From assembly GCF_964355755.1 (NCBI RefSeq), contig NC_092672.1, positions 36,338,437 through 36,402,436 on the forward strand: 64,000 nt of DNA, given 5' to 3'. This DNA comes from Antedon mediterranea (taxonomy: Eukaryota; Animalia; Echinodermata). The translations under genes were made by a program, and so were the position numbers. The notes beneath the pieces were generated by a model. That model was not told where the DNA came from. It saw nothing but the letters and a program-made list of their open reading frames with translations, and ran no database searches. Below, piece after piece: positions 626 through 42,464 of this stretch; position 1 is the first letter of the stretch; each line of letters opens with the position of its first letter.

Positions 626-2845
626 ATGACAAAAGACAAAAAGTATAAAGCTGATCGCCGATCAAGTAATATAGAAAGAATACTTTAATATCTATATACA
701 TATCTTAGAAAAGAATTCTACACACAAGTCAAACAAAATCAACTTTACATTATCGTTATAATAAAATAATATCGATTAAAGAAATATAAAATTTACACTC
801 AAATTGTAACACTTTGACAAGTATAACTAATGCATTTTAGTAAACTATCGGTATTTTATATCTTCAGTGTTGTAGACTAAAGTTTCATTTTATAAAAGAA
901 TGTTATTGGTATGTAGATGGCGTCAAAACGACAAAAAGACGACATAATTTGTTTAAAAAAATATCAGTTTTGCACCAAGAAAGTAAAAAAAAATTTGAAT
1001 TGAAATCGGGACGTATTAACTATGACATTACCAGATAGGAGTCACCAACGCAGGAATTTATTTTCAGTTACTGTCGATAAGGGGCGCTCTCTAAACACGA
1101 TTTAGTTTATGTCGATCATTAAATTGTACAAATAGGGAACTCTTTCCTGGTAAAACTAATGTTTTAAGTTTCACCAACTAAATCTTTCTGAATTATTATT
1201 CTTTAAACATTTGATAATTTTTTCCTACATTTCCTTTTTACTATTATCATTTGTCTATTTAGTTCAACAATGTATTTTGTACTTTAGTACTGTTGGTTTA
1301 CTTCAGAATAAAATAGAAATAAATATGATGAGTAATTCTAATAGCGTAATAATACTTTTAATTATTAAAAACATACAAAATACATTATTATTATTATTAA
1401 ATATTGGTAGTGTTGCTCGATAATTGAAATTAATCAAAATAATCTTCAATAAAATAGATGAAGACGTCAAGAAATAGAAACAAAGCAACCGGAATAAAAC
1501 CCATCGCAATGTAAAAACTAATATAATTAACTACAATTATAAATTACTGTTGATTAAATAAGAATGGTTTGTGTACATTTCTACATCTTCACCACCCACA
1601 GTTTTTATTAATTAATAATCGTTTGACCTAGGTGACCTCTGATGGCTAGTTTTATGTAACATGTTGTACCAACCTACAATTTGCTAATGTCTATTTAACG
1701 GACTAAAGTGACAATCTGCGGAATCAACTATAAGAAACATCATTATTTATCTTATTCTTCAAAGTTAATGGTTTTCCAACTTTAAAAAAAACTCATATAC
1801 TATTGGTGGATACCATGATTAATGAAATTATTACAATGATCCAAAATAGACATAAAGATTGAAAGAACATTTAACGTACACATGGCGCACCGTGGAATGT
1901 TATGTACACTCAAGTTACTAGTCAAAATATGCAACTAAAATTTAGCAATATATACAGTAAAGGTGTAGCACCAAAGTAGGTCGTTCGTTGGTAACAATGG
2001 TTGGAAATCGGTATTGTTTTAATCACTAAAATAATTGAAAAGTTTTCAAGAAAGAGTAAATAAAAAAAAAACACATTGAAGTTAACTTTACTGTTCATAA
2101 TTGAATTCACACAAATTTATAAAAGTTGGATTAGAAAAACGGCACGTTTGGTTATGTAGCAATAAAATATCTTGTTTCTCGCATATTGCCACCAACTTTA
2201 TTTTTCAACAAAATAATTGGTATACAGTGAATGTTTTGGAATTGACATTTCATAGGTCTTTTGGGCTACAATTTGGTTACTTTTGCCAAAAGAAATCGCT
2301 TATGAGTAGCCACTAATGAGTCTTAATTGTTTTGTGTGATACCTATAAATGAATAACATCTCAACATTTTTTAACAACATTGTTTGTTACAATAGTAAAG
2401 TACATAGAAAGGGACATGAGTTGTTGCATAGATGATCATAACATTTCAATATTTCTTTTGTAGATGAAATTGTTCATAAAACATATTTATCTTTGGTTTT
2501 ACAGTATACATGACTACTTATAAATATATTGAAAAAATAAAAATATTTTATATGATTTCAAATTTAGAAGACAATAATTTGTTTCTATATACTGACGCAG
2601 CAGAAAAAAAGCGTTGACAGGTGAATATGCAAATGAGTAGTAGGCAGGTGTAATGTATGCGAGGTATCCATCTTGATCTAGGCGAATTGGATGAGTAAAA
2701 TGATTGCTATGACAGCAAGCAGTACAAGACAACAGCAGGCGATATAGAACTTCTTCTGCAATTTGAAATATAATAAACACATAATCCACAAGGCCTTTTA
2801 CAATATACGAAGAATATCTATGTCTACATGTGTTTGTTTTCTTAT

Positions 2846-3555: not shown

Positions 3556-5770
3556 ATGTTTTTAAACTGATGATTTAGAAGATGACATAAGCATGCACAA
3601 AATATTGCATTTTCGTTAGTTTGCATTGTTCTGATTACTAACCAACAATTAGAAAACGAAACATTCATTCAAAGGAATTAGAGTAGGAATTTATTAATTT
3701 GTTAAAGGAAATACTTGCATCTATTAGTAAGTTAGTTTGTTAGTACAAACTAATTGTGTGTTTTTAATTCAGACATTTGCATTATTTATTATTAATTACA
3801 TTATATTTATATTAATCTGTATTAATATTAATTTTAAAATTGCACTAATATGTTCATATTCTTGGGTAATATTAATTTTTTTTTTTTAACCTTATATTCA
3901 TTTTAGTTTTTTATAATTATTTAAGATAATCGTTATCATTATATAAAAGATAATCTTTCAAATCAAGCATGAGAAGGTACAGGGCAGACATGCGCAAACG
4001 TTATTGCCAACAAGCCATGCATATACTTATATAGCATATAACTTGAATAGAAAGTTACATAATGTTTAAAACACATTGATGATGTGATGGTCCGATGAGA
4101 TTAAATGTTGATAAATACAATGATAACAATGAGTCCAAGTAGAACACCAACTGTTATCAATAGGTAGAATCTTTTCTATATAAGACAAAGTGCATGTATG
4201 AATCAGACAGTGTTATGAGAAGGCTATTTTATTTATTTTCCGCACAGTGGCGTAACAGCTAATCCCGGGGGTCTTAAGGTGGCCCATGAGCAGTGCCCAG
4301 AGAAAAAACAGGAATTAAAATGTACCGGAAAGGCTACAAATGTCCGAGCCCTCCAGCGTTGGAACTTGGAGGGCCACTTAGGTGCCTAAACCAGGGCCCG
4401 CTGCCTCTGCATTACACCACTAGTTCTGCACCACCTGAAGATGGTTTATTACTTTATTCGAATGGTATTTAAGAATTATGCATGCATGCATTATAAATCA
4501 TATAATATATGAGTTTAAACAGTAAGAGTTAAAAAATAAGAAAAAAAGGAAGAAAATGTTGAATTAAAAAGTTAAACTTTAAGATTAGTAAAGGAAAACA
4601 TATAGCGTACAAAAAGTAAGTAAAATATTATCAAAGACTACCGGTAATAAATAAAATAAAAGCCGATATTAGAAAATGTTAAAAAGTAAATAGATGATTG
4701 ACTAGTTTCTTCAGTAAATAATTGTTACTAAAGAACTACTATGGCATTACTGCATCAACTGCAGTACATATTTATGATAATTTTTAAATGGTTTGGTAAT
4801 ATCAAAGTTATTTTTAAACAAAGGCAGTACAAATGTTGTTGATGAAATTATTAATTTGAAATTAATAATTTGAGTGAATAAAGCAAAATGTATTTAAATT
4901 CTATTCTACATAAAAAAGCAAAAATATAATAATATACTCCAAAAAAAATAAGTTTATACAAGAAAGATGAACGAATTCTTACCTTTTATCATATAGTTGT
5001 TTTTATCCATGCTGCTTATTTAATGTTTCTTTAAATATAAATTAAGTTAAAACTTACCACATATGTGTTCCTTTTACATCAGTTTCATTTTTCACTTTTT
5101 TAAACTACTATACATTATACTGTTACTTCAACACTCAGTGAACAGCAAGTACGTAACTTACAAGGATCAGAAATAAAAGCTACGTTTCCCTTTAATTAAG
5201 TTTAGGTACTGGTGAGACCATGCAGGGATTTTTAGCACTGTGGTAGAGCCTTGTAGAATTTGTAGGCTAGCATATTAACCAACACCATTATATCACGATA
5301 ATTGTGTTGACAAACTGTATACTGTATTACGACAAAACATTATTAAATCATAAATATAATCAGCTAATCTAAAACTAATTTAATACTTTAAAGAACATAA
5401 GTATAGAAAATAAGTAAATAATAAACAAACAAAAATAAAATGATAAATACAATTCTACATATATTTTAAGCAACAACTTCCAAACACTATTTGATTTTAT
5501 ACTGTAATCAAGAAATGGGGGATAACAGTTTACAAACACTGACAAACAAAATACTGTATGAATCTGAGAATATAAAAAACACAAAAACACGTGTTCTCAT
5601 TTCCAACAAGGAATTTAATTGCAATTATCACAACTACCTGATAATTTTTCATACAATTTATTTATTATATTGTTCTGCTATATTATTAATAACAATAATA
5701 ATATTAATAATAGTATTTTACTACACAGCTAAGGCCCAAATGCCAATTTACAGAGCAAAAATAGTCAGTA

Positions 5771-9000: not shown

Positions 9001-9213
9001 GCAATAATAAATAGTGTATAGGCCTATTCAAGGATCTCCCTGGCCTATTATTCCACTAGGTTAACACAAGTTTTTCACAAATATCTAATATTCTAAATAT
9101 TTTCCAATTAAGAATAATAAGTAATTCATGATTAAATTTCTTGCAGACTACTTTTAAATTACACTTATTTATTATTTCTGTTGGAATCACAGCATATGAA
9201 TCAGTAATAAATG

Positions 9214-9291
9214 TTACATGAACTTTAAGGCAACAAAACCAACGAGGCAACTGATTAAAACTGTGCAACCAGCTATCATCATGAGTTTTTT
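9214..9291 (-). CDS. STX1A: Syntaxin alternative last exon T3 (transmembrane anchor)
   Basis: atctttacag|AAA AAA CTC ATG...: [25 protein letters not shown], phase 0, 78 nt including TAA; acceptor nearly identical to that of T2. Confidence 0.8.
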   Translation of the reverse strand, partial: KKLMMIAGCTVLISCLVGFVALKFM

Positions 9292-12200
9292 CTGTAAAGA
9301 TATAAATTACAATCCAGGTGGCTTTAACCCAGGTGGCTTTGTCCGTAAAATTCTACAGAACGACTACATAAATGACAGTCTTTCAACAAAGATTTCCACA
9401 TATAACTTCTCATACAGGAACAGAAACACAAGAATTATATTGTTATACAAAATAGAGTTTGTTACCCATCTTAGACATTTAAATACAATGTAGAATGCTG
9501 TATAGTATTACGACCAAGAAACCAAAACACACAGTAACTTTTGCTTATTTAAAAAGCAAGCCAAAAAGTCTTTAGTGGGAAGTTAATATTGTCAATTTTA
9601 AGCAGGTTTTTGTAATTGATCAACGAATCACACTATAATCATTACACCTAGTTACAAATAGCATTAATAAGCAAGCAACTTTACAAAGAATTTTTCTTAC
9701 GTTAGTTAAAAACTGTTTACAAAGCATAATGTTATTAGATTACTATTTTACAGTATTGGATACATTCAACAACTTAAACTAACATTGTGAAAACAGTTTT
9801 ACAAATAATTTATAAATTTAAAGAATCAAAAAATTAAATACAATACAAATAACAACAAAACCAAAAACAAACAAAAATCTTTAAATAGTTTCAAATTTGA
9901 GAAGTTGAAGTTTCTATTATAACAATGTTAGCAACCTTGGGATGGATAAGTTTATACTAGCTAAAGGCAGGAACAAATTGACTAGATTCTAACAACAGTA
10001 CTGCATAGTTTGTGCTAAAAATTAACCGATTAACATTAGCCAATAATTTACCTATAGACAATACTGCAAATATTTTGTTCAAAAAAAGTTATATTGTTTT
10101 CATTTGATATATACAGCTCGTCATTGGTCTATGAAAACAAAGCCAATAAAGATATTATGAACAGCTATAATTAGAATAGAGTTTTACATTCAAAGTAGGT
10201 ATATATCATCCACTATATTAACAAGATTGAAGAAGCAATGTACACTAATTGGAAGTTCTATCTGTTGACATATACTATAAAACAACTTCACAATATTAAA
10301 TCACAGGAGAATCTGACCACCTCTTAAAAAAGGAAAGGGTTTAATGATGAAACCCTTTTGTTTAGCAAAATTAATTTTTGTTGGTGGGGGGAAAATTTTC
10401 ATAAATATACAGATAATATCTGAAAGTTATTTGATTAATTATTTAATAACCAAAAAAATACTGATTTTGAATTCACGATCATCAATACCTGTAGAGTAAT
10501 TAAGCTTAAGAATCATTATTACTGAATCTTATTCCTACACTGCCTTCACATCATCTTACTAAACCTATCTTAAATTGATCTATCTGCCTTCTGTTTAGTG
10601 TTATAAAATTTTTATATTTCCCTTATGCGACCTTTGACATAATGATAACTCCAACGATCCCAATCAATGCCACACAAGCCAGAATCATCATAATTTTTTT
10701 CTGTAAAGATACAAAAACGGAATGGAGAAGCTTCTTCTTTTAACTTTTCTCCAAGTCTTGTGAAACAACACGACAAATGTATTCAAAATCTTCTAACACG
10801 GGGTTACAAAAAATACATAGAAAGAGGAAACGGAGAGAAATTAAGACTTTGACTCCCATCTAGTTTGAGTGAAGATGAGATACCTAAATCTTAGAACATT
10901 CACAGTTCATTAAAGGCTCTAGATGGTAGGTCAGTTTTACTTTCTCTCACTCTTGTAACTAATCACGACGGCGAAGGTACTAAGATAATAATAAGGATCG
11001 CTATAATTACGAACAAGACACCACAGCACAAAATTATCATAATTTTTTTCTGCAAGAAAAGAAAAAGAAAGAGAACTGCAAGCAATTTTATCAGAAGAAA
11101 TGGGTTTTTTGTTGGAATACTTTTTCTGTCCTCTTATTACTTTTTAAAAAATTCTGTTTTATTCAACTAAACAATGTCATTAAATTATTGGGTGTGTAAA
11201 TGACAATCTCACAATCTGTTTTCCGAAAACTTTCTCAATGACTGTTAAGTCTGCATTATTTTATAGATGCCCTTCAAGCTGGAAAAAACCAGTTGATATT
11301 AATGAGCATCTACTTTTGTTAAATAATTCTATAAATAACCAAATTGTTTTATTATATGAATAATTTAGTATAAATAATGACTTATTTTCTTATTCAACTT
11401 TACCCAATATCAGCAGGAAGTTCTCTTTTTGTTATGCATCTGGACAAATTTTAAATTTATTAATCACAAAGCGTCCACAAATCACAATATTTATTATATA
11501 TAACTATAAAAAGTTATTATTAAACACAAATTATAAGAAGAATTGATGCGTTTCCTCAATTATAATCAGCAATTTAAAATAATGTAGAAATTTTAATATT
11601 TTATATAATGTGAACGATAAATTGAAATTGAAAGAGACACACTTATTAATAATACTCGCAAGATAATATATTTTTTTTTAGTTTTTGTTGATTTTTCTTT
11701 TTTTAAATATTCATACTTTTTTTGGGACTGAAATGGAAACTAATTCTTCTGTATATAAAGATTAATTGGGTCTTCCTGAATCTATTATGTTTGATTGTCA
11801 TTTTTTGTTTATATACAAACAAACTTATTAAGTTTTAGTCACGATCTTACCCTTATAATATAACTTTCAGAACCCTAAATTTTCACTATTTCACAATTGA
11901 TAGTGTCTCATAAAAGTCCCAAAACTTGAGGGCATACAGACTTTTTCTTTTTTTAGTACCACTTGTAGAACCATGATGGTAAGTAACATTTCTCAAACAA
12001 ACAGTGCTTCGGAATAATTTAACATATGGTACAAAAGCATTTATTTTCACTAGTGAAGTTATTTCAGCAAGCATTTTATTTTTCAGTATTATTAATTTAA
12101 TATTTGTTTTATTTTTTGTTGGAATATATTGAGGAAACCATCAATTCTCATAAAGTGTTAGTAAAGTAATTTTAGTATACAATATTAAATTTTATTAAGC

Positions 12201-15200
12201 CACATTTCTGGTGACAAGCAAGGAATACTACTGGATTTAAAACAATGTCTATCTAGGGAATTAAAGATTAAAAATATACACACTTTTAGTACATCATACA
12301 CTCTGTACTACAAATCTATTTGTAAATTGCAGCTACATTACAAAATTCATTTATCTAATCACATATTATATAAATATTTAAAAAACAAATCATAAGTTTG
12401 TTTTTAATGTACTCATTTTTTAAGAAAAGCAGAGTATCTTAAAAAATGATGGTACATTAAAAATTTATCTTGTGATTGTTTGATTTTCGTAGTAAACAGT
12501 GCAGATATGAATGTGCAGAACATGTCAGCATGCGTACAAATAAATATATTAAAAAAAATTTGACTTACAAATTCAAAGTGAATATATCAAATAGATGAAC
12601 TATAAATATACTTCTACACAAAAAACTTGTACACAAAATACTGTGACAGTGGAGATCAACAGAGGACATTTTTTGAACAAGTGAAGAATTCTGGAATTTT
12701 TTGGAATGTTTTGGAAAATTCCGGACAATTCGCTGTACAGAAACTGGACAGACCATCTCTTCTACTGTACATGTTTTATTTATAGACTTGTGGACACAAT
12801 GATAGAGCCATACAATATTACCTCATAGCAACAAGAGATGCCGAAATTAAGTCTAGGTGGCCAGCTCTTTCTGGCGAGGCTATGAATTGCATGGCCCGCC
12901 TCAAGATTCAAGAAATTTATTGGTCCACTTTAAAATGGAAATTTGTTTTGCTCTGTTTCCTATTTCTTTGTTTTTTCTTTTCTTTCTCAAAATATTCCTA
13001 TATTTTGGATGAAACCACTGAACAGTCAAACATGAAAAACAGCTAAAAGTACAACTGAAACATGCAAATTGAATAAACAACACTAAAAATGGAAACATTC
13101 AACAAAACAGAAGAAAAACTGTCATTCAATAAAACAAAAATATTGAAAAATGAAACTTCATTATATCATAATAAACATATTTTAACTTTACAAGTGATCA
13201 TGGTGAAAATATTTCAAAATATAATATACAAAAATATAAAATATGTAATTTAAGCAGAAGGAACATACATAATGCATATATACAGGGAATAGTCAGAGAG
13301 GGAACTACAAAGAACAAGCATACAAAATCACAATTATATCGTCAACTATCCTAAAGCTAGCATTATTTAATTATAACCCAAAATATCTTTACACTCTTAA
13401 GCTCTGTCTACACTATCAAACTTTGTGTGACAAAAAAATGTGATGTGCCCTTATATGGACACGATTATGTCATATTACAACCATATTTGGGCATATCACA
13501 CTTTCTTTGTCAAACTAGTTTAATAGTGTAGACAGAGCTTTTGTTTGTGATTTTCTTGAGTTCGTTATCGGAGTTGAGTTGACAGCATCCCTAGCATTAT
13601 TTTAGACTAGTCCTATCATTATACTTCTAAATTTTACATAATTGATTAAAGTCACTATCAAATGTACAGTTTAAAAACTAATAAATAATTTTATTTTACT
13701 TTACAATTAAATCAATTGCAAGACTTCGCTACTGTACTTGGTCACCATGCCAACTATAAAAACATCAATGTTACTTTACAAACAAATATTTATAACAAAT
13801 ATTATCTACACATCAAATTTGTTTCAAATGCCTCAACGTGCTGACTGTCAAAATTGAAAAACACATTAAGTACAGATTCGTTAAAATAAGGGCGCTATTA
13901 CTTCCAAAATTTACTATACACCCGCAGTATTGACATTTTGACCTCATCAACATCAGAAATGTAGTATAGTATAAATTGTACACTTTGAAACAAAGTTTGT
14001 ATTTTAATTTTGGCAGCCAGAAGTTAAAAACATTCAAATGCACGTTTTTTATAATAACATCAAGCAGGTTGATTTACAAACCACTATCATCGAATGTAAT
14101 ATATTTGTATCAACATCAACTGAATAGCAAATCCTATTTAATTATGTCAGTTATTTAAAGATACACAAGATTCAGATGCATAAAATATGTTTACTAATTT
14201 AATAGTTTTGAATACGGTACATTATTACTGTATTGATTTAAAAATAAGTCTACTTACAAATTAAAATGTTTTATTCAAATATAGTGAAAAAAAAAACCTT
14301 GAAAACTAATTGTGCTCTATTATAGTACAGGGGTGTTCTAGGAATTTAAAATGTTTGGAACCAAGCCCTTCTTGAGAGCATGGGCTATTGTCGGTTTATT
14401 CAGGTAAGCTAGGCACGAAATATTCCTAATTAGTAGTACTATATTTATCCTATATTTTTCCTAATTTGGTTTATACTACAGATACATCATGCATAGGTAA
14501 CTACATTACCAATGAAAAAGAGGTTCAAAATCTTATTTAACAACATCTTCTTTTACTAAAACATATTCCATAAAGAATTTTAATGAAAGAATTTTGATTG
14601 AAGAATTCATTACTGGATTAGTTTATCAAACTTCAAAGGGGGTGGGACATTAAATGTTACTCAATTTTCTATATTAAAAATGGGAAATAAATTTTTAATG
14701 TTTTTTTTTAAGGAAATTGAATCTCTTTTCATTAAATCTATCACAAAATCAGTAACTAGCAACGGAAGTACAGAAGGAAAAGCATTTATACTTACAATGC
14801 AGGAAGAATATAGAGATCTCGTGCAATGTCTGGTGCAGATATGTATTACCATAATGTACCTACCTTACGTGCTTTGCTCTGGTACTTTACTGCCTTCTTA
14901 GTGTCAGCAACGGCTGTTGTAACATAGTTGACTGACTGCTCAACATTATATTCAATTAAATCTATCATTTCGCCCTACCAAACCCATGTAAGCAGCCATG
15001 CAGTAAAAAAGAATACAAGAAAAAAAAAACAGAAGACCTGTTAGTTGCGTTATTTCTTTTGTTTTCACTTACCCGTCGAGCTTTGCTTTGATAAATAGTG
15101 GCTTTTTTTGTTTCGATTTTTGCCGTTTCTACGAAATTAACCGATTGCTCTACATTAAACTCTATTTGATCGATCATCTCACCCTATGGAAGCAATATTA

Positions 15201-18200
15201 GTGAGAAGAACGTTTATGAAAGAACACACAAAAGAAAGTGGTGAAAATGATGAAAACTATAGCTGTGACCTCTGACCTGATAGACCTTAAGTGACCTTCG
15301 TCACCTTACCTTACGGGCACTACTTTGATATACAACCGCTTCTTGTAATTGTTGAGTGCCTTCTTTAATATAATCCACTGCATTTAAGACGTTGTTTTCT
15401 ATGCTATCGATCATATCGCCCTAACATCAAGTCAAAAAATCAAGCACATTTTCCATAAAGACAATTTTAAAAATACAACTGCCTCAGAAAAAGATATTCC
15501 ATTAAATGAATTCTTCTGATAATGGCTGGATTATACTGGAGATATCATGATAATGTCTATGACAAGTGCAACAAAGATTTAAATGAAGTGACTGACAATG
15601 AATGAAAGAATATCTGCTGGTCTGTCACAATCCAAGTCTTCAAATAAATTTACTTAAAACAAATACTGCAACAGGATACATGAAGGGTTGCTGACTGCTA
15701 TCAAACCAGAAGAGCAGTAAACTGCTATGCAGATGAAGTGTGCATCTTTAGTTATGAGGTGTAGGAGAGTGGTTATTTAAGATAATCTGAATGAAGATGC
15801 TGTCCGAGCAAGGCAATATAATTAGATTGCCTTGGTCTGAGGAATAAAAACTTTCTCCATTCCCAAATTGTGCTTACTATTTTTTGTATGATATTGTCAT
15901 CCTCAATTGGGGAAATTCAGATTAGGCCTCTACAGACCCACAGCAGCCATAGTTCAGCGACAGGGGCCAAGAAGGACTAGTAAACCAGGGTAACCCGAAA
16001 GATAAACTGGGTTGTTTAAAGCCAGACGGTTTTAAGTCTTAACAAGAAGACTAGTTCTATGACCAGACCTACTGTCAAGGAAAGGCTTAAACATGTGCTG
16101 GTTATATTGCTATGGCTCCTTCTTCTTAACCATTCAGGCAAAATAAATCTACTACTTTTTATGGAGATTGAAGACATGATGATGAAACTGAATTCAAACA
16201 ACATAATGTTTTTAAAGCTTATTATTGTTCATAGCCACTTTCCTTGAAGTATGACCTATAGGTAATGTGAAATTATGATGTGCAAAAACAACTCATAAAA
16301 AACTTTAAAATAATAGTTTTGACAAAAGCCAAAAAACTCTTTAAAAATTGGTACTGTAGGTACACTGCCAAATTTTGAAACAATTGAAATCAGCCGACAT
16401 TATAAAAGAATAATGGAATTTAACTGTAGTAGTAAAACTGTAGATCACCTAAAAATACTGATATCTGAAAAAAAAGTGTTTCTGAAACAAAACAGTTTGT
16501 GACACATGACAATGAACAAAAGTGGTTACATAGTTTATTTACAAATGACATACTGTATGACATCAGATGCAAGTTATAAGCATCAAATTCAAGGCCCAGG
16601 TCATACTTCAAATTGTTTAAACTACAAACAAAATGGGTTGTTTCTGGTTGCATTGGTGCCTCTGAAATAGTACTGTAGGCTAACTATTCAGGCACCTCTG
16701 GCTGTCCATAGTTTTAACTCTAAAGTATGTATGCATTAATGGTGAAAGGGAAACTAAAATTGCTGGTGTACTTTATTTAAAAGATAATGCTTTCATTTCT
16801 CTGCCTTGACATAAAGTTACATTAGCAAGGTCCTCAATGGTACAGTACATACAGTGAATTAAAAAAGCTTACCTGGGTCTCCAAAAGGGTTGCCATGTCC
16901 ATAAACATGTCGTGAAGTTCAGTGATACTTTTCTCAAGTTTAATGATATCGTTATGCCTTGCTTCGATATCCTGTAACGTCTGTTTAGCTTGTTGTGTGT
17001 CCATAATAATCTACAAGAAACATCAGGTCAACGTTTTGTATCCTATTTGGCAAAAGTCGCTATACTATGAATTTGATTATCATTAATTAATCAATAACAT
17101 TTGTATATTTAACTGTCTTCAGATTCAATGAAATCAGAGAATATTAATTACAAGCCTTGTCTACACTATCAAACTTTATGTGACATGACCTGATGGATAT
17201 CACCACCATATTTAAACATATCACCACCATATTTGGGCACATCACACATTTTTTTCAAACTAGTTTGATAGTGTAGACAGAACTTTTGGAGTCATTCTAC
17301 ATGCTGACTCAAGTCTGTAGTATTGTCTTATTTTATGTTAGTCCACCACTTGGCGTTTTGATTTTTGTCTGAAGTATTATACGTATGAAACGCCATATGT
17401 GCCAAAATATTAATCTTTTTATTAATATTAAGTCAAAACACAGTCTAGAAACTAGACTATCATGGTACAGTCTTAGTTGTAGACAACAGCAGTCGCTGTA
17501 CAGTGGCTGCATTCACCTATCAATCCTTTGTCAGGTACATTTATTTATTCTTTCTTCCTTTATTGTCAATAAGGTAATGAAAGCACTCAGGAACTGAGTG
17601 AAGTACTTCGCAAAATATATCAAGGAAAAATATTCAGAGAGAGAGGGCTCTGTACTATTTGTTTGTTTGTTTTATCTTTATACTGGGTGACCTCTTCAGT
17701 CAAAGACTGATCTCCCAGAGGGCCCAGTTGGTGATCAGTGGCTGTGATGTACTAATACACCGGGGTAACCCCCTACTCGTCTCGAAAGATGTACTAGGTT
17801 CTTTAAAGGGCACACGAGCAAGTTGTGTACACTGGACCTACGGTTTATAGTCCTTATCCGAGAAGACTCGTTCTACCACCAGAACCATGGAGTGAGTGAG
17901 CCTCGAACCCCTGCCGATGTTATAGCTACGTGATTACGGTTCCACTGTCTTAACCACTCGGCCACTCACCCACCTTTGGTCCATGTTAAAAGAATACGAT
18001 AATTGACAAAACTTAAGTATGTACTGTAGCTTCCACAGAACAAACAGCATCATTATTATTAATGTAATTTAAAATGTAGGTTTGTATACATACTCCTGAT
18101 GTGAATATTGCTGGGTTACCGGTTTCCAACATGTCCTCCAATTCATCATCTGTAGTCGTCTTGCCGGCTAAAAAGAAAACAATAAATTTTATTGTAAATA

Positions 18201-20003: not shown

Positions 20004-23000
20004 CAACAACAATTATTAGTACTGTAAGTATGGTGAAAATAAATACTTTTCTTTAAAACAAAATCTTTTAGATTCAATAAAAATAACAGAATCTACAGTA
20101 ATATCAGTATTTCATACAAAATGTCTGCCTGCTAACTATCATTAGACAGAAGTGAGTTAATACATCCAAGCTGTGTTACAACATATTGATTCAATATCTA
20201 TGAATGGACGGCCAGAAGCAATGACCTGCTCATTGTCTTTTTACATTCAACCTATTTTCAACACCAAAAACCCTCAGTCAGTTGCCAGCTGATGTAAATA
20301 GACACAAGTACAAGAGAGAATATTGATTAATATAAAGGAAACATATATTGTAATAGGATGCCACATGATACATTTAAAGGGACAGTTGAATAATATTCTA
20401 CCAGCTGACACAATTAAAGGGACAGTTAATTTAAATATAAGCTGATAATCTTAAAAGGACGCATTTGATTTACCATTAACTGATATACTGATATTTTGAA
20501 ATTAAAGGGACAGATCAATTAAATATACTACATACAAGCTGACACAATTAAAGATGCAGTTAATTTAATCTTAGCTAATAATCTTAAAGGGACGTGTTTG
20601 ATTTACCACAAACTGATATATTCATATTTTGAAATTAAAGGGACAGATCAATTAAATATTCTACTACAGTAGCTGACACAATTAAAGGGGCAGTTAATTT
20701 AAAATAAGCTGATAACCTTTAAGGGACGTGTTTGATTTACCACTAACTGATATACTGACATTTTGAAATTAAAGGGACAGATCAATTAAATATTATAAAA
20801 GCTGACACAATTAAAAGGGCCAGTTAATTTAAAATAAGCTGATAATCTTAAAGGGACGTGTTTGATTTACCAAAATTGAACTGATGCTATGAAATTTAAA
20901 GGGACAAATATACTATAGTACAAGCAGTACTACAGACACAATTAAAGGGACAGGGAATGAAAATGAACATACTTATTTCTAATTGTCGTTGAATTCTTCC
21001 TTTACATCGTTCTCTGTAGTCTGTTTGTGTGCTGTTGTAGTCTGTCATCACCTCAACAAACTTTCTTGACAAAGTTGTGTGCTAAAACAAACAAGAATAT
21101 ATTTTTAATCTAGACACTGTATCTACTTTGTTAACAAATGACAAAACATAGAATATGAGCTTCAGATAATACATTTTTATTTTATACATTTTACTTCAGT
21201 TGCGGGTTTTAATTTTTGACAACCGAGGTCAGGTCATTCTATATGCTGTTGGACGTCGTAAATCAAAACTGTGTCAAGGTGTGGAGCGAGGAAACACAGC
21301 CTAATAAACCCCAAATGTGTACAAAGATTAAAAATGATTTTGTTTGGTCTTCACAAACCTTAAGCTCTGTGTATACACTATCAAACTTACTTTATTTGAC
21401 AAAAAAGTCATATATAACCATGATGATGTCATATCACTACCATATTTGGGCATATCAAACTAGTTTGATAGCTTCCTATAGTATAACATTACCACAACAG
21501 TAGTTGTAGTAATTTTATACATTTTTTTTTTTTATTAAGTTACTGCAGTTAAATTTCAATAGAAGCTGCAGTGATTATACAATTATGGTTTGTCAATATT
21601 TTACTGCAGTGCAGATAATTTACTGCAGTAATGAGATTTACCTGTGTTTTTTGAATTCGGAAATCTGCAGAAGTTTTCTTGCCCTCATTTTCTATACTTT
21701 GCTCCATAACTAAAATTAAAAACAATAATAAATAAAATTGTATTTAAATTCCAATAAATTAATATTCTGTACTGTGGAAACACAATAGTCTCTTATAAAT
21801 CAAGAAATAAAACCCAAAAAAGGTATATTATAGTGCTGAAGTTTTTGATCTAATAAATTTGATTTTCCAAAAGAAAACATGTTATGAATACTATACAGAG
21901 ATCCAGATGAACCTTTATACTAATGTTCGAATTTGATTTGATTTTTAAGAATGAAAGTATTTTAAAATATATAATCCACTGTACTATGACAGTGAAAACT
22001 AGTATATCTACATGTTCATCTATATTAGCCTAATAATGTTTCAAGTAGCCATCGTTCTTGCATGTTAAAATTAAAGACTTGCCGATGACACTGTGCAACT
22101 CATCTAATGTTGCCTGTTTATTAAGACACAAATCAACTTGTTCTATATTTAGCAATCAGCACTCAACAACATTCATTCATGTCAAGAGCTTTTTTCACAG
22201 TTTAAAATGACAGAAGGCAAGTTATTTTATTTATTATTTATTCAGGCAAAAGATACATTTTACAAAATACAAATAATAATACAGGGGTGTTCTAGGAACT
22301 TTTTACTTTCATATCTAAAGCACTCCCTCTGGAGAGAACGGGCTGTTGTCGGTTTATACAGGTAAGCTATGCACGAAATAGAACAACAAATTAAACAAAC
22401 AAAACACAAGGAGAAAATATAAAATCATAGTCACTACTGTAGCTGCCAGGAAAGCACAATAGTAGCCACTGTCACCAATTAGGTGTGTACCGTAACATTT
22501 TTTTCTATTGTCTGACTTAAAGACCCTACAGTATCTCTCACAATGTGAAAGCAAGTTTGTCAGTTGGTAGTCTGTGAGAGTGCCCCTTCCCTACTTACCT
22601 GGATAAACTGACATTAGCCCTTCTCTCTAAAGTGAGCGATACAATATGAAGTAAATACAGGTGTAGTTTACAAAAAGTGAATTGTACATTAAGATGTTTC
22701 TTTGATGTGACTTAGTGCCACTTGCCAACTTACCTGGATAAACCGACATTAGCCCTTCTCTCTGTTTAAGTGAGAGATGCAATATGAAGTAAATACAGGT
22801 GTAGTTTACAAAAAGTGAATTGTACATTAAGATGTTTCTTTGATGTGACTTGTGCCACTAACCTGGATAAACCGACATTAGCCCTTCTCTCCGAAGTGAG
22901 AGATACAATACGTCAAATACATAGTAGTAAATACAGATGTAGTGACTTACTTTTAAGTTCGTGTCTCACTTTGTTGGCACTAGTCTTGATGTCCGCCATC

Positions 23001-26000
23001 AGTTCTTCCATTTCTTCCTTAACTCCTACAGATAAAAAATAAAAATCATTATCATACACATCAAAATCTTCAATCATCAATCAAGAATGGCAACTCTATT
23101 GACATCTTTAAACAGTTGCTAAAAAACCCATCTCTTTCGCATAGCATTAAATGACGTAATTTCCATTTAGTTCGAGCCTTTGGTCTTTATAGAAAAATTA
23201 TTTTGGTTAAGCGCTATACTTCTAACCTGACCCAAGAAAAATACTTATACTTTAACTGATTCAGTCAGTGTTTAATAATAGTCTTCTTCCTCGAGAGAGG
23301 TCTAGAGCATTTATTTCCCAATACTTACTGTAGGCTAGCTCCAATACTTAGGCTAGCCCCAATACTTAGGCTAGCACTAGCAGCCAAAGATATTATAAAC
23401 ATTATACAAAAATTAAATACAATATTAATTAATTTCAAATTAATTATCAGTATCACCGGGTCGAATTTTTGCTTGTTAGTATTAATTCATAATTTCTTTA
23501 CTACTGATTGAACAAAAAAGAAAACAAATTAATGTTACTTTAAAAAATCATTAACATTTCTTATTTAATTAATATCTATATTAAATTCTATTTCAAATTG
23601 AAAACTTAAAATGCATCTGGTGGTTCAATAATTAAAAAAACATAAAAATCATGATTTTATTTTTATTTACTTTTTTCACATGCAGTAAAATTGTTTTTAA
23701 ACGCATGTTTCCTTTGCAATGCACTTAATATACATGTGAATTTCATTTGGGAATTTTGTTCTATTTCATTATAAATATACGCACAACTATAGTTTATAAT
23801 ATGCTATATAAAGGTGTTCATAACCGCATACACCTATCTCTGGACTCTTCCATTACTGAAAAGGGGTTAGTATTTAACTCTTTGATTTGAACTCGGAACC
23901 GATAATTATGTTAACTTGTTTATCTGTTGTTTACTTTATTTTTAATTTAATACAGTAGTTATTAATTTTCCAACAATGTTAGTACTAGTAATAATAAATA
24001 CATTTACTAGGTAAAATCATATTAATAATATCTTGTACTTGTGCAGATATTAAGATATTTGATGGCTGGTGTTGATATTTAAACTTGGTTTGGTTACAAT
24101 TATACAAATACTTTAAATGGAAGAATCCATTTTACAAAATTTGATAAAATAATTTTTTTTAAATGATTTGGCAGTATTCTTTGCACCTGCTAACATGCTT
24201 AATTTCATAAGCAATTGATTGGTAAATTTTGACTTTTATTCAAAGACACCAGCAATTTTATTTCTGGTCCAGTAGCCCTCAGAAGCCCTGTGTTCACCAG
24301 TGTGTTGTGTACAGTATTCTTAACAAAAACAATCTCTCATTGTTTAGAATCTTGTGAAGCAAAATGAATTTTGAAACAAAGAAAGTCAAAAAAAGAGAGT
24401 AATTAATTATTATAAGTTCTGCCTTTTAAATCTATTGTTAATTTGTTTTTTATAATAGAAATGTTAATGTTACAGTACATATTTCATGTCTACTATTAAT
24501 TTATGAAATTTTATTTAAAAAGATTTATTAATTAACGATTAACCCATAGTGGAATAAACTATGCTTTTAATTAAAATTGAATAATTAAAAATTTAAATTT
24601 TCTACATAACAGTATTATTTCTATTCTGCCAATTAATGATTATTTAAGATGATCCCTGGCGGTGTATGTCACTTCTCAATGAATGTTTTGCGTAAAGTTA
24701 TTTCTAAGATGATCCCTGATCCTAGATAGTTGTCAATAAACTCCCTGTGTAATTCTATCCATATTGATAAGAAGAAGTATGTATTGATCATTGGAGCGTA
24801 GCAGATGCGGTTCAAAAGAAAGACTACGGCGTGATTACGCATCATTACGCCAACGTACAGTATCTATGAGTTACAATTCTACCACAGAATCGGAAAATCA
24901 GAATATTATAATATATATACATACAATATATTTAAAAAAAATATTACATTCGAAGAAATTAATGTCAATTTCAATTTTGCTTGTGAGCATTTGACCAAAA
25001 AATTTTCAAAAATATTATAATAATCAAACAATTCTACTGAATCAATTATTTAATTTCATTTCCTCATCACTCTCCCCAACTTCTTTTATTCCATCCACAT
25101 AAACATCAAAAGTATTTTTATTTTATTTTTTTATGATTTTATCTCTCACCACATCATAATCATTAACTCAATGACTACTGTATCAAATTACAACCAAATA
25201 TGTTTATTTATACCGTAATAAATAAAATAAAAAATAAATAAAATAACTATTAAACATTTAATAATTAATAATATTTTAGTAAAGTACTGTAGTTATACTG
25301 ATTTTAAATTGAGGAAATTGGTGTTAAATTTATAAAATTATTTTCAATAGAAAATTTAATGAGAGGAATTGAGAAGAAGACAATGAAACCATTTTCTAGA
25401 TCAAATAAGTGGTTAAATAATTACTGTAATTTATAAATTATAAATAAAAAAATAATAATAATTTTCCGTCACCAACTTGGGTGCTTTTACTTTAAATTGG
25501 AATTGGTTATAATGTCTCGAAATGTCAATATTTTTGTCAATTAAAAATGTTGTATTGAAATGGCTAAAATTATTCATTCAACAAGGCCACTTTACCATTC
25601 CTGTTTGTAATATGTACAAAAATATGTGGTGAATTTGACAATAAGTTGACATAACCGAACAGTGAACAAACTAAACAGTTTTTTTTATTACATTTTAAGA
25701 TTCCACGACTGAATCAGTTGTTTCTATCATGGAATGCTACTGCAAATATCGTATCCTATTATTTGTTAGCAAATCAACATAATACTTTTTTCCTTTTAAT
25801 TATACTGTACACAGAATGTACAGTAGTACTTACTGAATGTACAGTATTATCATTTTCTTATTAATCAATCTCACATACAGTTTTCTAATATTTGTAATAA
25901 AATTATTAATAATTATTAATATCCTAAATTTGTTAGCAAATCAACATAATACTTTTTTCCTTTTAATTATACTGTATATACTTAGTACTGCAAACACTGA

Positions 26001-29000
26001 ATGTACAGTTAGTACTTACTAAATGTACAGTATTATCATTTTCTTATAAATCAATCTCGCATATAGTTTTGTTTACTATTTGTAATAAAATTATTAATAA
26101 TAATACATAACTGCAGTATGGTTTTGAAAATTATGAAATATTCATCGTTGATTTGAGATTAAAATCTGTATTCACATTGAATAAATTAAAATATAAAATG
26201 AATTTTTTTTAGTGAATCATTAATTATCCTAATTTGAAAGGGTCACAAAGGGGTAAAAACCCAAACTTAGTCATTATGTACTTTTGCAGGGAGGTGCATT
26301 ATAAAAACTGTGGACCAACAGGAGCACAGTTAACCTATATTGACATAGTACAGAACTTCAAAGCATACTGAACAATCATTTAGTGCTTATTTTGATATTA
26401 AGCCTATAAATAAATAAGTGATGCCCACACAATAGTGACAGAGAATTTATACCATGATGACCTTTGGACTAGTGACCTTACCTCGCCCAATGTAATATAC
26501 TGTAGCATACTGTCAAACCAACCAACCATGGAAACCAATTTCAAAACATTTTATGTGAAGGGGGTGGGGGAAGTGTGACGTTGTTAAACGTATATATTGC
26601 AATTATTAGTTGCAAGAAATAAAATGACAGACGACTATTACTCCTGACTGTGACGTCATACACACATATATTGGATATAGATTGATATGTGACATCTCCC
26701 TTTTTCTTAAATAACAACAATCGTAATAGATAGATATGTGACATCTCCTTTTTTCTTAAATATTAACAACAACAATAATCGTAATCAAAATATCAAACTC
26801 TTAATGAAACAATTAAACTATGATGATGAACATTTGGGTATAATAAAACATGAATATCTGGCAGAGAAATTATGAACAATGAGTCTTTTAAACATTATTT
26901 GTCCATGTTATTAAATCATCAAAACGTTAAGACACACTATTTCCCTTTGGTCTGGTGATGACTACCTCTTCCTTTTGAGGATCAGGTGTCCTCGGCGGAG
27001 TTTCGATAGGAGTTTCATCCACTTCCCCTTCAACATTAATATCTTCTTCATGTGATTGATTTAATTGTCGGCGATTGCGTCTATACACTTGTCCGTTTTG
27101 CGTAGCGACCATATATGAGATCAATGAGAGAGAGTGTAACTTTATTCCAAAGCATTCTGAGAACTCCCGACTGTGACGTCATACACACATATATTGGATA
27201 TAGATAGATATGTGACATCTCCCTTTTTCTTAAACATTAACAACAATCGTAATAGATAGATATGTGAAAGGAAGTATACAGTTTGATAATGTAGGGAAAT
27301 GTGTAAATGCATAGTATAATTGTAAAGCATCAAATACAATGTGCTCTGTGTGTGTGTAACTATTTCTGGATCCAAATCATACCTCTACACAAAATTATTC
27401 ATTATTTCCTTGACGCTATTGTTTATATATTCTTTTAATTCATTCATATTGTTTGTACTGTGCATACGGTACTGCATATTGTACTGTATATCCTTTAGGG
27501 AGTGGAACAGGAATAGTACAACCCTTGTGTTAGGCCAGGATTGAACTATGGACCTTGGGATTGGAAGGCAAGCTTGTTAACCACAAGATTCACTGTACTG
27601 GAGTAACTACTGTATCACCAGCTCCACACATGTACTGTACAGTACAGCAGATTTCCATCTATAGTATAATTACTTAACTTCTGTAGTTAAGATAAACTGA
27701 TAATAGTTCATACAATTCATTCGTCTAGTAAAAATGCACACTCTAATGTAATACCATGGACTTATACAGTAAATTAGAATTGTATAGATACATGCTAAAA
27801 TATAATACACTAACTCATGAAGAAATTGAATCGCAATTATGTTAAATCATATCAATTTAAGCAATACTATGCTCAACATGCTGAAAACAATTTTTAAAAT
27901 ATATAGTAGTACACCATGTAATGTACAGTACGGTATCATGTATTGTGTAACAGAAAATAAAATATAACTTAAGTCCCTACAAACAAGATACACTGACAAT
28001 ATTGAATTTACAAAGTGTTGTATACTGCATAAAGTGCATTTGCCTTAAATTATGATTGTGTAGACTGTGAAACAAATTTCACACTGTTTTATTAGTTGGT
28101 ACATACAGTATGATGATTTAAATGATCAACATTTGAAATGTTATTCAATGCAGAGTGTGATAGCTTTACTGTAGTACTGTAGATAGAGGTTAGTGACCCT
28201 CAGTATTTTGAGATACCTGTACCTACTGTACTCAATATACAGTAGATCATCTTCATTTTTTTTTAAATTAGGTCAAAATTAAAATTAAATTAAAATTATC
28301 AATAAATGAAAACAATAGGGCATATTGTCCCTAATTGCAGTAATGTCAATTTTTAACTTAGTTAATTTAATTAAGTTTAAATATGAATGAGCATACTGTA
28401 CAGTTTAATCAAAATTAAAATGTACCTAAATAAATTAAATATACTTATAGATAGAATAAAGTATTACATATACTATACTACTATAATTGAAGAAGGGGTT
28501 AAGGGTCAATACATTTATTCAGGAGGAGGAGGACCTTGTGTAATTATTTTTTTCGAATTGAATTATTTTAATAATTTGAGGTATAATTAATTATTGCATA
28601 GTTAGAATAAGACTTGTAATTGATTGATCTCTTACTTTCATCTGGTTGCGGAGCTGATAATATATCACTATGTTTCCGTTTTACCTCATCTACGTTATCT
28701 GCTATACGGTCGATGTTTTCACGTATCTCTTCCACCTGATCAACAAACGAAAGTTAAAGAATAAAAGCCATGCACACACAAAAACTAGAAGTGGGCTTTA
28801 AATTATCTGAATGATGTACAGTTAACATGACTGAGTGTAGAGTCCAGTACAAAGTACAGTGTTCCAAGAACCCAAAAAGTCACAGTTACAAAAATTAAAG
28901 ACATTGGTAGAAAATAACAGTCAAGATTTTTGTACAATATTTGTGAACTTTTTTATACAAAAACACTTGAAAAAAAAGAAAAAACAACAGATTTGTTAAT

Positions 29001-34444: not shown

Positions 34445-42464
<8,020 letters not shown>

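Follow-up and report, generated by a model that had tools for sequence, protein, structure and literature searches.

The Antedon mediterranea DNA analysed here, a stretch of 64 kb referred to below as the window, holds on its minus strand a crinoid plasma-membrane syntaxin gene in which three tandem exons for the C-half of the SNARE motif (9a, 9b and 9c) precede five alternative membrane-anchor exons (Ta to Te). Splicing likely takes one exon from each set, giving fusion proteins tuned to the tissue; we put the probability of this reading at about 0.7. It draws on the observed exon anatomy, on a read-supported path from exon 8 through 9b to Te and on the conservation of all three exon-9 types between two crinoid families; the further pairs, and the rule of one exon 9 per transcript, come from annotation.

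The gene matches A. mediterranea RefSeq protein at 228 of 228 residues. In a Pfam profile search the Habc domain (PF00804) scores 138 bits and the SNARE domain (PF05739) lies above the cut-off in P0003, P0129 and P0004; a Habc domain followed by a SNARE motif with a zero-layer Gln is the combination expected of a plasma-membrane Qa-SNARE of the syntaxin 1/2/3 group. Coding exon 1 (31154..31183), which encodes the N-peptide, has a GT donor and matches RefSeq P0003, and exons 2 (29165..29254) and 3 (28636..28735, helix Ha) have AG/GT ends. Next come exons 4 (22951..23025, helix Hb), 5 (21642..21709) and 6 (20973..21081, helix Hc). Exon 7 (18094..18167) encodes the linker, and its junction with exon 8 appears as a loose end in run X1. 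Exon 8 (16873..17010) contributes the N-half of the SNARE motif and terminates, in phase 0, in LETQ, so that the shared region does end at the zero-layer Gln, as a sequence-only reading of this DNA had stated. A high-copy repeat is present at 13396-13541 and from 17152 onward.

The same reading had counted three intact copies of exon 9, and this is borne out: each copy is 111 nt (37 residues) long, in phase 0, with AG/GT ends and without a stop. All three score above the Pfam threshold for SNARE, 26.8 bits (9a 49.0, 9b 38.4, 9c 42.6). Introns of 126 nt and 98 nt separate 9a (15310..15420) from 9b (15073..15183) and 9b from 9c (14864..14974), respectively, and 9c has an additional donor 5 nt upstream. 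The copies share 15-27 of their 37 residues and all keep the heptad pattern. Layers +1 to +8, assigned by the STX1A numbering, read IIVSVATA in 9b and 9c and IIVAIGLA in 9a. The K248-type 9b and the V248-type 9c (STX1A/STX3B-like) thus have identical core layers, and their differences lie on the outer surface, at 232, 235, 248 and 249. 9a is a divergent C-half with Gly at layer +6 and Ser260; Gly247 occurs in the window's 9a and in one of 51 distinct exon-9 peptides compared, that of the Anneissia 9a type. In the polybasic linker (252-263) there are five basic residues in 9b and six in 9c; the linker of 9a is weakly polybasic because it has only two. A tblastn search of the window with exon peptides, in which 9a was the sole exon-9 query in the correct frame, found no fourth copy.

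Three anchors had been recognised earlier, Ta, Tb and Tc, and these are intact, each with an AG acceptor, a dibasic start, 20-22 uncharged residues and a stop; Td and Te were missed, and the true count is five. Ta (10963..11049) has Cys at 271 and 272; its counterpart, with 18 residues identical, belongs to Anneissia X6. Tb (10623..10700, Cys272) belongs to RefSeq model X3 and is identical to Anneissia X4 at 24 of 25 positions, and Tc (9214..9291, Cys272 and Cys278, AATAAA at 9173) belongs to model X4. Td (4101..4175, AATAAA at 3790), which is without Cys, consists of an intact ORF and an acceptor and occurs in no model and no read; neither Tc nor Td has a clear Anneissia counterpart. Te (2678..2755, Cys 270-272), found in RefSeq models X2 and X5, is the anchor of the read-supported isoform and is 22/25 identical to Anneissia X2/X5. 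All five encode a single C-terminal anchor of 20-22 uncharged residues, and each has its own acceptor, stop and downstream poly(A) signal, those available to Ta and Tb being only ATTAAA at 10447/10345 or, in common, the AATAAA at 9173. The anchor-exon pattern is matched five times in the 64 kb window, always 3' of 9c on the minus strand, and nowhere else in the window on either strand; when the 14.9 kb region was simulated 200 times with a Markov model, 4 simulations gave one match and none gave two. Nothing in the window clearly matches the Anneissia X1 anchor (at best 10 residues, to Te), and further anchors may lie beyond base 1 of the window.

Since exon 8, the exons 9 and the anchors are all in phase 0, 15 exon-9/anchor pairs are in frame. 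The phase-0 junctions first described therefore hold, while the nine combinations derived from them grow to 15 with Td and Te, and the one path that reads support was not among the nine. An assembly artefact, or a collapse of paralogues or alleles, would be a wholly different source for such an array, and has next to no probability: the interval 14393-17149, with all three exon-9 copies, and the Ta-Tc region each lie within single contigs in three DNA-type runs (one sample), the copies are just 53-62% alike in DNA, and Anneissia has a matching set. For 9a-c and Ta-Tc an artefact is excluded. Among the 40 SNPs listed (of 76), one falls in exons where 3.3 are expected (p=0.15, not significant); Tb carries one listed SNP, which is synonymous.

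The read-supported path comes from run X1, whose RNA status is a guess. None of the runs found to contain this DNA is recorded as RNA, which carries no weight as to expression. A spliced contig at a depth of 77 joins exon 8 to 9b at a GT-AG joint and continues from 9b into a loose end that matches Te over its initial 30 nt; this is the sole path seen in reads, one pair out of 15 in one run. Junction mapping covered 14720-17140, where the contigs of run X1 showed no junctions of 9a, 9c or Ta-Td; because contigs drop rare variants, the missing 9a and 9c junctions are not evidence of absence. The Antedon RefSeq models give 3/15 pairs, 9b (model X2) with Te only and 9c (models X1, X3 and X4) with Tb or Tc only; none of these three anchors is annotated with two exon-9 types, and no model, out of five, includes Ta or Td. 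Exactly one exon 9 is present in 10 of the 11 crinoid RefSeq models, none in the remaining one and two in no model. Transcript use is indicated for 9b by reads, for 9c by three Antedon models and for 9a by an Anneissia model only.

It is possible, if rather doubtful, that each exon 9 is tied to its own anchor or anchors, in which case some five to six products would be made and the 3x5 array would be nominal. The exclusive pairs of the Antedon models and the single path in run X1 fit such an arrangement, as does human STX3, listed in PMC8373072 as two coupled transcripts. The Anneissia models, with three exon-9 types, five anchors and six pairs, speak against it, since their Te counterpart takes both 9b and 9c types. 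Crossing of this kind, one anchor annotated with two exon-9 types, is found also in the brittle star Amphiura (2x3, five pairs, crossing at two of three anchors), the ribbon worm Lineus (2x3, four pairs) and the ant Dinoponera (2x2, three pairs), and in one Xenopus STX3 model. On the preferred reading, in which one exon is drawn from each set, pairing would be biased and not fixed; the annotated pairs do look biased, 9c going mostly with near anchors and 9b with far ones.

A further alternative is that a single working isoform (9b-Te) is accompanied by a few minor ones, with 9a, Td and Tc recent or decaying and little used. In its favour, 9a, Ta and Td occur in no Antedon model or read (9a is absent from all five), 9a evolves fast, with long branches and 21/37 residues identical between the crinoids, and in a word-seeded search the Anneissia 9a region matched itself alone. 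We consider it improbable, because every copy has retained its length, its reading frame, its splice sites and its layer residues, and because another crinoid family has an annotated counterpart of 9a (Anneissia X1, tree support 98/95). The exon-9 copies diverge with synonymous sites saturated and pN of 0.18-0.39, which supports the view that these exons are old and constrained; 9c is identical to its Anneissia counterpart at 35/37 residues. Together with the use of all three exon-9 types in Anneissia models, this agrees with the initial description of these exons as intact. Among the models compared, three exon-9 types were found in the two crinoids only, and the charge-poor 9a appears to be a crinoid-only copy, new here. 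We do not assign 9a as an STX2/3A/4 orthologue, the grouping with STX3A/STX2 (70/75) being weak and open to long-branch attraction.

How the choice is made may be partly built into the introns. Inclusion of both 9b and 9c would be prevented by a predicted branch point (15040..15046, minus strand; 6/7 match to the U2 consensus), whose candidate branch A lies at +32 from the 9b donor; a steric limit of about 50 nt between donor and branch point is given in PMC7969005. No other YTRAY occurs in the 98-nt intron; the motif is followed by a tract with 27 pyrimidines in 30 (15034-15005), and there is an AG-free zone of 61 nt. Such an arrangement arose in 0.6% of shuffles, in a post hoc test. Likely steric exclusion of 9b+9c by this branch point is new here. 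The 126-nt 9a-9b intron has no consensus distant branch point and a candidate at the normal position, -15. Docking/selector duplexes of the Dscam type do not appear to be present, the longest perfect complements of the selectors tested being 7-9 nt with no common docking site, and counts of CELF, Nova and Rbfox motifs were uninformative. The last exon would be selected by competition between acceptors together with its own poly(A) site.

The closest known system is STX3. In human STX3, two such exons of 111 nt are separated by 119 nt and followed by two anchor exons (PMC8373072, event 206), which agrees with the earlier statement that STX3A and STX3B exchange both segments. As described for STX3A/STX3B (exons 9A/9B and 10A/10B; PMC11476516), it is the 37-residue exon after the zero-layer Gln that is duplicated, with the anchor cluster separate, and in both STX3 and Antedon a K/R248-type copy lies 5' of a V248-type copy. 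Unlike STX3 (2x2, coupled pairs), Antedon has a 3x5 array with a third, charge-poor copy, and crossing pairs are annotated in Anneissia. In STX2 (PMC8373072, event 205) and UNC-64A/B (PMC4946901), rightly cited in the sequence-only reading for their alternative last exons, homologous phase-0 last exons swap the membrane anchor alone, as the Antedon anchors do; these genes have two anchors and one exon 9, in contrast to five and three. One C. elegans UNC-64 form is neuronal and the other non-neuronal, under CELF/UNC-75 control (PMC4946901). SNAP-25a/b exon 5 (PMC2581893) is likewise a mutually exclusive duplicated exon of a neuronal SNARE that alters surface residues and cysteines, but in another SNARE class and as a single event not known outside vertebrates. 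Several anchor exons, as here, are present in all invertebrate syntaxin-1 sets compared (Anneissia, Amphiura, Lineus, Dinoponera, sea stars, urchins, Apostichopus and Mytilus).

A 2021 paper dates both the STX3 exon pair and the STX2 anchor pair (event 205) to Bilateria (PMC8373072). With human STX3 at 2x2, and a published bilaterian date for both duplications, the two-cluster architecture is not special to Antedon; it follows that vertebrates employ splicing in addition to paralogues. The novelty once suggested for a 3x3 arrangement thus falls in part: the size is 3x5, and the type of architecture was already published (STX3, STX2). The kind of system is a known one, and automatic annotation already includes most of the crinoid isoforms; new here are the 3x5 size and a gene order that matches the vertebrate STX1A block.

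That order, VPS37-DnaJ-BUD23-(RAN)-syntaxin, is the order of chicken VPS37D-DNAJC30-WBSCR22-STX1A; RAN presumably adjoins STX2 in human. Given the constraint, the exon-9 use in Anneissia, the crossing anchors and the STX1A gene order, several paralogues of vertebrates may plausibly have this one gene as their counterpart. To that extent the proposal that one invertebrate gene covers the vertebrate Qa-SNARE range survives, with the qualification that vertebrates splice too.

As to the age of the copies, the AU test rejects an origin of all three within crinoids alone (p=0.005), and a V248 clade, found in 30% of bootstrap trees of 37 columns, is not rejected, and no more than that (AU p=0.46). 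Descent from the STX3 9A/9B duplication would agree with order and residue types, the 37-column tree being without resolution. The exon pairs could instead be of independent origin in crinoids/brittle stars, ribbon worms, ants and vertebrates, with V248-A249 reached repeatedly, which we regard as unlikely. AU tests reject separate origins neither for Lineus (p=0.07) nor for STX3 (p=0.135), the alignment is short and the V clade unresolved, the second copy of the ant is of an unrelated type, and a phase-0 111-nt exon duplicates easily. On the other side stand, besides the rejected crinoid-only origin, V248-A249-D250 and N242, common to Lineus and crinoid copies, near-identical K248-M249 partner copies in Lineus and Amphiura, and the position of the K/R type 5' of the V type in both Antedon and human STX3. 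The K248/V248 pair is likely a bilaterian inheritance, whereas 9a and the extra anchors were probably added within the lineage. Against this, the models compared from sea stars, urchins and sea cucumbers have the K248 type only.

Tentatively, the bilaterian ancestor may have had one syntaxin locus, beside BUD23, DNAJC30, VPS37 and RAN, with a spliced K248/V248 pair and several anchors, of which vertebrate STX1, STX2 and STX3 would be partitions; crinoid 9a would then have added a two-key switch, residue 260 and Cys271/272, that controls palmitoylation and whether fusion is clamped or constitutive. If pairing is regulated, this would support the division of ancestral splice forms among vertebrate STX1/2/3. 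Neither PMC4417111 (subfunctionalisation of splice forms) nor PMC9741552 (main text, one supplement file) mentions syntaxins.

Every functional step proposed for these exons is borrowed from rodent neurons. C-half swaps and mutants at 231/232/248/249 change release there (PMC10957171), and by analogy with rodent STX1A the surface differences between 9b and 9c (232, 235, 248 and 249) would shift priming and spontaneous release. A basic residue at 260 is required for palmitoylation of the anchor (PMC9183232); by the same analogy palmitoylation may be gated jointly by exon 9, through residue 260, and by the anchor exon, through Cys271/272, so that 9a (Ser260) with any anchor, or Td with any exon 9, would be poorly palmitoylated. 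If pairing is regulated, the gene would offer a ready-made panel for how C-half and anchor set spontaneous versus triggered secretion. The chimeras built by hand in rodents, with a swapped C-half, a swapped anchor or a changed residue 260, are natural splice options here.

The double exon array at the 3′ end of the Antedon syntaxin gene is real, constrained, partly expressed and larger than the sequence-only reading had it. The gene is on the minus strand, and the exon arrays make up its 3′ end. Exons 1–8 (31183 to 16873) have AG/GT ends throughout and translate into 228 residues, identical at 228/228 positions to the Antedon mediterranea RefSeq syntaxin-like isoform X2; the zero-layer Gln is the last codon of exon 8, in phase 0. 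Three alternative exons for the SNARE motif's C-terminal half follow on the same strand, 9a (15420–15310), 9b (15183–15073) and 9c (14974–14864), each of 111 nt and separated by introns of 126 nt (9a–9b) and 98 nt (9b–9c). In pairwise comparison they share 15, 18 and 27 of 37 residues and 59–69 of 111 bases, and each passes the Pfam SNARE cut-off on its own. A scan of both strands for an acceptor, dibasic start, hydrophobic run and stop returned five membrane-anchor exons (Ta, Tb, Tc, Td and Te), every one downstream of 9c; the same pattern gave no hits in 196 of 200 simulated sequences and one hit in the other 4. Three exon-9 copies and three anchors, giving nine in-frame pairs through phase 0 junctions, had been proposed earlier; the exon-9 copies and Ta, Tb and Tc stand, but Td (4175–4101, minus strand) and Te (2755–2678, minus strand) had been overlooked, and the array is 3 × 5. 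Single contigs from three DNA-type runs of one sample span the exon-9 block and the Ta–Tc block. Divergence between the window copies is the opposite of the dN/dS near 1 that the sequence-only reading had named as counter-evidence, with synonymous sites saturated (pS 0.74–1.14) against a pN of 0.18–0.39.

Splice paths were taken from sequencing run X1, considered RNA by guess only, and isoform pairs of Antedon and of a second crinoid, Anneissia, from RefSeq annotation, whose variants are normally backed by RNA junctions. In run X1, exon 8 and 9b are joined at GT–AG ends in a contig (depth 77) that then runs on into the initial 30 bases of Te; the depth of intron pieces in this run is 4–9. This sole assembled path matches none of the nine proposed pairs; junctions into 9a or 9c were not assembled in these contigs, which cannot show absence. 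Five Antedon RefSeq models comprise 9b–Te, 9c–Tb, 9c–Tc, exon 8 joined to Te without exon 9, and an anchorless form. The last (RefSeq isoform X1, distinct from the run) is reproduced when 9c is spliced at its other donor, 5 nt upstream, which shifts the frame and predicts a soluble syntaxin without an anchor. Such tandem donors, with a second GT 5 nt upstream, close both 9c (14864–14869) and 9a (15310–15315). In RefSeq X5, exon 8 (16873) runs directly into Te (2755), predicting a half-SNARE with an anchor; the form may be inhibitory, or it may be noise. Across 8500–11118, contigs of run X1 (depth 8–23) continue across the acceptors of Tc and of Tb/Ta, as would fit either pre-mRNA or a long 3′ UTR common to Ta, Tb and Tc.

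The 9b–9c intron contains a single YTRAY, which agrees with the branch consensus at 6/7 positions and whose A lies 32 nt from the 9b donor. 3′ of this candidate motif are 27 pyrimidines in 30 positions and a 61-nt AG-free stretch, and a comparable motif in that zone appeared in 0.6% of shuffles (a post hoc test). Since the published steric limit between donor and branch point is about 50 nt (PMC7969005), the prediction is that 9b cannot be spliced to 9c, and the two exons would be kept mutually exclusive by steric hindrance at the putative branch point. A long pyrimidine tract occupies the middle of the 9a–9b intron, which also has a zone of 71 nt free of AG, and no distant branch point stands out clearly there; a search for docking/selector RNA duplexes for exon-9 choice found none. 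Anchor choice would operate through alternative acceptors, each exon having a stop with poly(A) hexamers downstream. The proposed selection resembles the anchor switch of unc-64, in which CELF/UNC-75 is reported to decide between the neuronal and non-neuronal anchor (PMC4946901).

The core layers are the same in 9b and 9c, which differ at outer positions 232, 235, 248 and 249. We take STX1A residue and layer numbering to apply to the exon-9 copies, consistent with the sequence comparison and with PMC10957171. Swapping these outer positions between STX1A and STX2 is reported to alter pool stability and spontaneous release (PMC10957171), and by extension from this rodent work the choice between 9b and 9c would act through them. 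R232 is kept in 36 of 51 exon-9 peptides and in none of 9a, 9b and 9c; in 9a, E238, K252, K253, K256 and K260 are lost as well, and layer +6 is a Gly. Palmitoylation of STX1A Cys271/272 is described as requiring that residue 260 be basic (PMC9183232). In this gene exon 9 codes for residue 260 and the anchor exon for the cysteines (two in Ta, one in Tb, one plus one deeper in Tc, none in Td, three in Te); the chosen pair would therefore matter beyond each part and, going by the rodent work, would jointly affect palmitoylation.

Six Anneissia models combine three exon-9 types and five anchors in 6 pairs, and the Te counterpart is annotated with both 9b-type and 9c-type exons. These exon-9 types are identical to Antedon 9a, 9b and 9c at 21, 28 and 35 of 37 residues; the 9b-type has an equal identity count with 9b and 9c, and trees pair b with b (92/80), a with a (98/95) and c with c (97/91). 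Clear counterparts exist for Ta, Tb and Te (18, 24 and 22 identical residues), and none for Tc and Td among the anchors of the Anneissia models. Array sizes in other species are lower bounds, because only model clusters reached by our searches and look-ups were covered: at least 2 exon-9 types × 3 anchors in Amphiura (5 pairs) and in the ribbon worm Lineus (4 pairs, from the 4 models with an anchor that were used), 2 × 2 in the ant Dinoponera (3 pairs), 1 × 4 in sea stars and in Apostichopus, and 1 × 3 in Mytilus. Two common exon-9 types are set apart at 248–249: a K248 type in 9b, most invertebrates and bird STX2 (R at 248 in STX3A), and a V248-A/S249 type in 9c, the second copies of Amphiura and Lineus, nematodes, STX3B and STX1A. 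The 9a type is so far confined to crinoids: in a word-seeded search, the Anneissia 9a region matched only itself, and of the 51 distinct exon-9 peptides fetched, 1 has Gly247. In ants (proteins P0117, P0233, P0234) the second exon 9 is a divergent, charge-poor one of their own; its net charge is −3, as in crinoid 9a, and it was apparently gained separately.

The K/V exon-9 duplication is likely to be old, judging from the peptides compared. In a tree of 28 rows and 37 columns, with long branches among the rows and topology tests picked after the first tree was seen, a V248 clade was not rejected (AU p = 0.46), and just 30% of bootstrap trees contain it; separate exon-9 origins in Lineus (p = 0.07) and STX3 (p = 0.135) were not rejected either. 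A clade of all six crinoid exon-9 copies was rejected with the same tree (AU p = 0.005).

Older sea-urchin syntaxin work and SNARE-evolution work exist; full-text searches, with most subscription literature outside their reach, found no paper about arrays of syntaxin exons in echinoderms or crinoids. The scheme is already known from STX3, STX2 and unc-64, and the new part is the 3 × 5 size and the extra crinoid copy. Human STX3 is described as carrying two copies of this 37-residue exon, with 119 nt between them, ahead of two anchor exons, whereas the Antedon gene has three copies and five anchors; human STX2 has two anchor exons, and Martinez Gomez et al. placed both events at Bilateria via Daphnia equivalents (PMC8373072). 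The difference between STX3A and STX3B is reported to lie in exons 9–10 (PMC11476516, PMC11119284).

Upstream of the syntaxin gene, within 40804–63251, lie RAN (plus strand), BUD23/WBSCR22 (minus), a single-exon, DNAJC30-like DnaJ gene (plus), a VPS37 (Mod_r) gene (minus) and an eIF2B-family gene (minus). Human RAN presumably adjoins STX2, for which a literature search gave no support. In vertebrates, the Williams-Beuren block that surrounds STX1A has the same VPS37–DnaJ–BUD23–syntaxin arrangement. Chicken chromosome 19 is reported to carry VPS37D, DNAJC30, WBSCR22 and STX1A in that sequence (PMC13560938), and since the order is the same, microsynteny reaches from crinoid to chicken; this supports the view that vertebrate STX1A, and probably its paralogues too, have the Antedon gene as their single counterpart.

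A very high-copy short inverted-repeat element, with contig depths >100,000, lies at 13396–13541 and from 17152, with more copies elsewhere in the window. At 26930–27100 (minus strand) a short open stretch is flanked by direct-repeat copies (about 27260–27150 and 26770–26640), in what we take to resemble an LTR retrotransposon end remnant. The segments 35400–35800 and 62400–62900 are alike in sequence, with the same tblastn match at 35720 and 62551, and may represent a duplicated or mobile segment.
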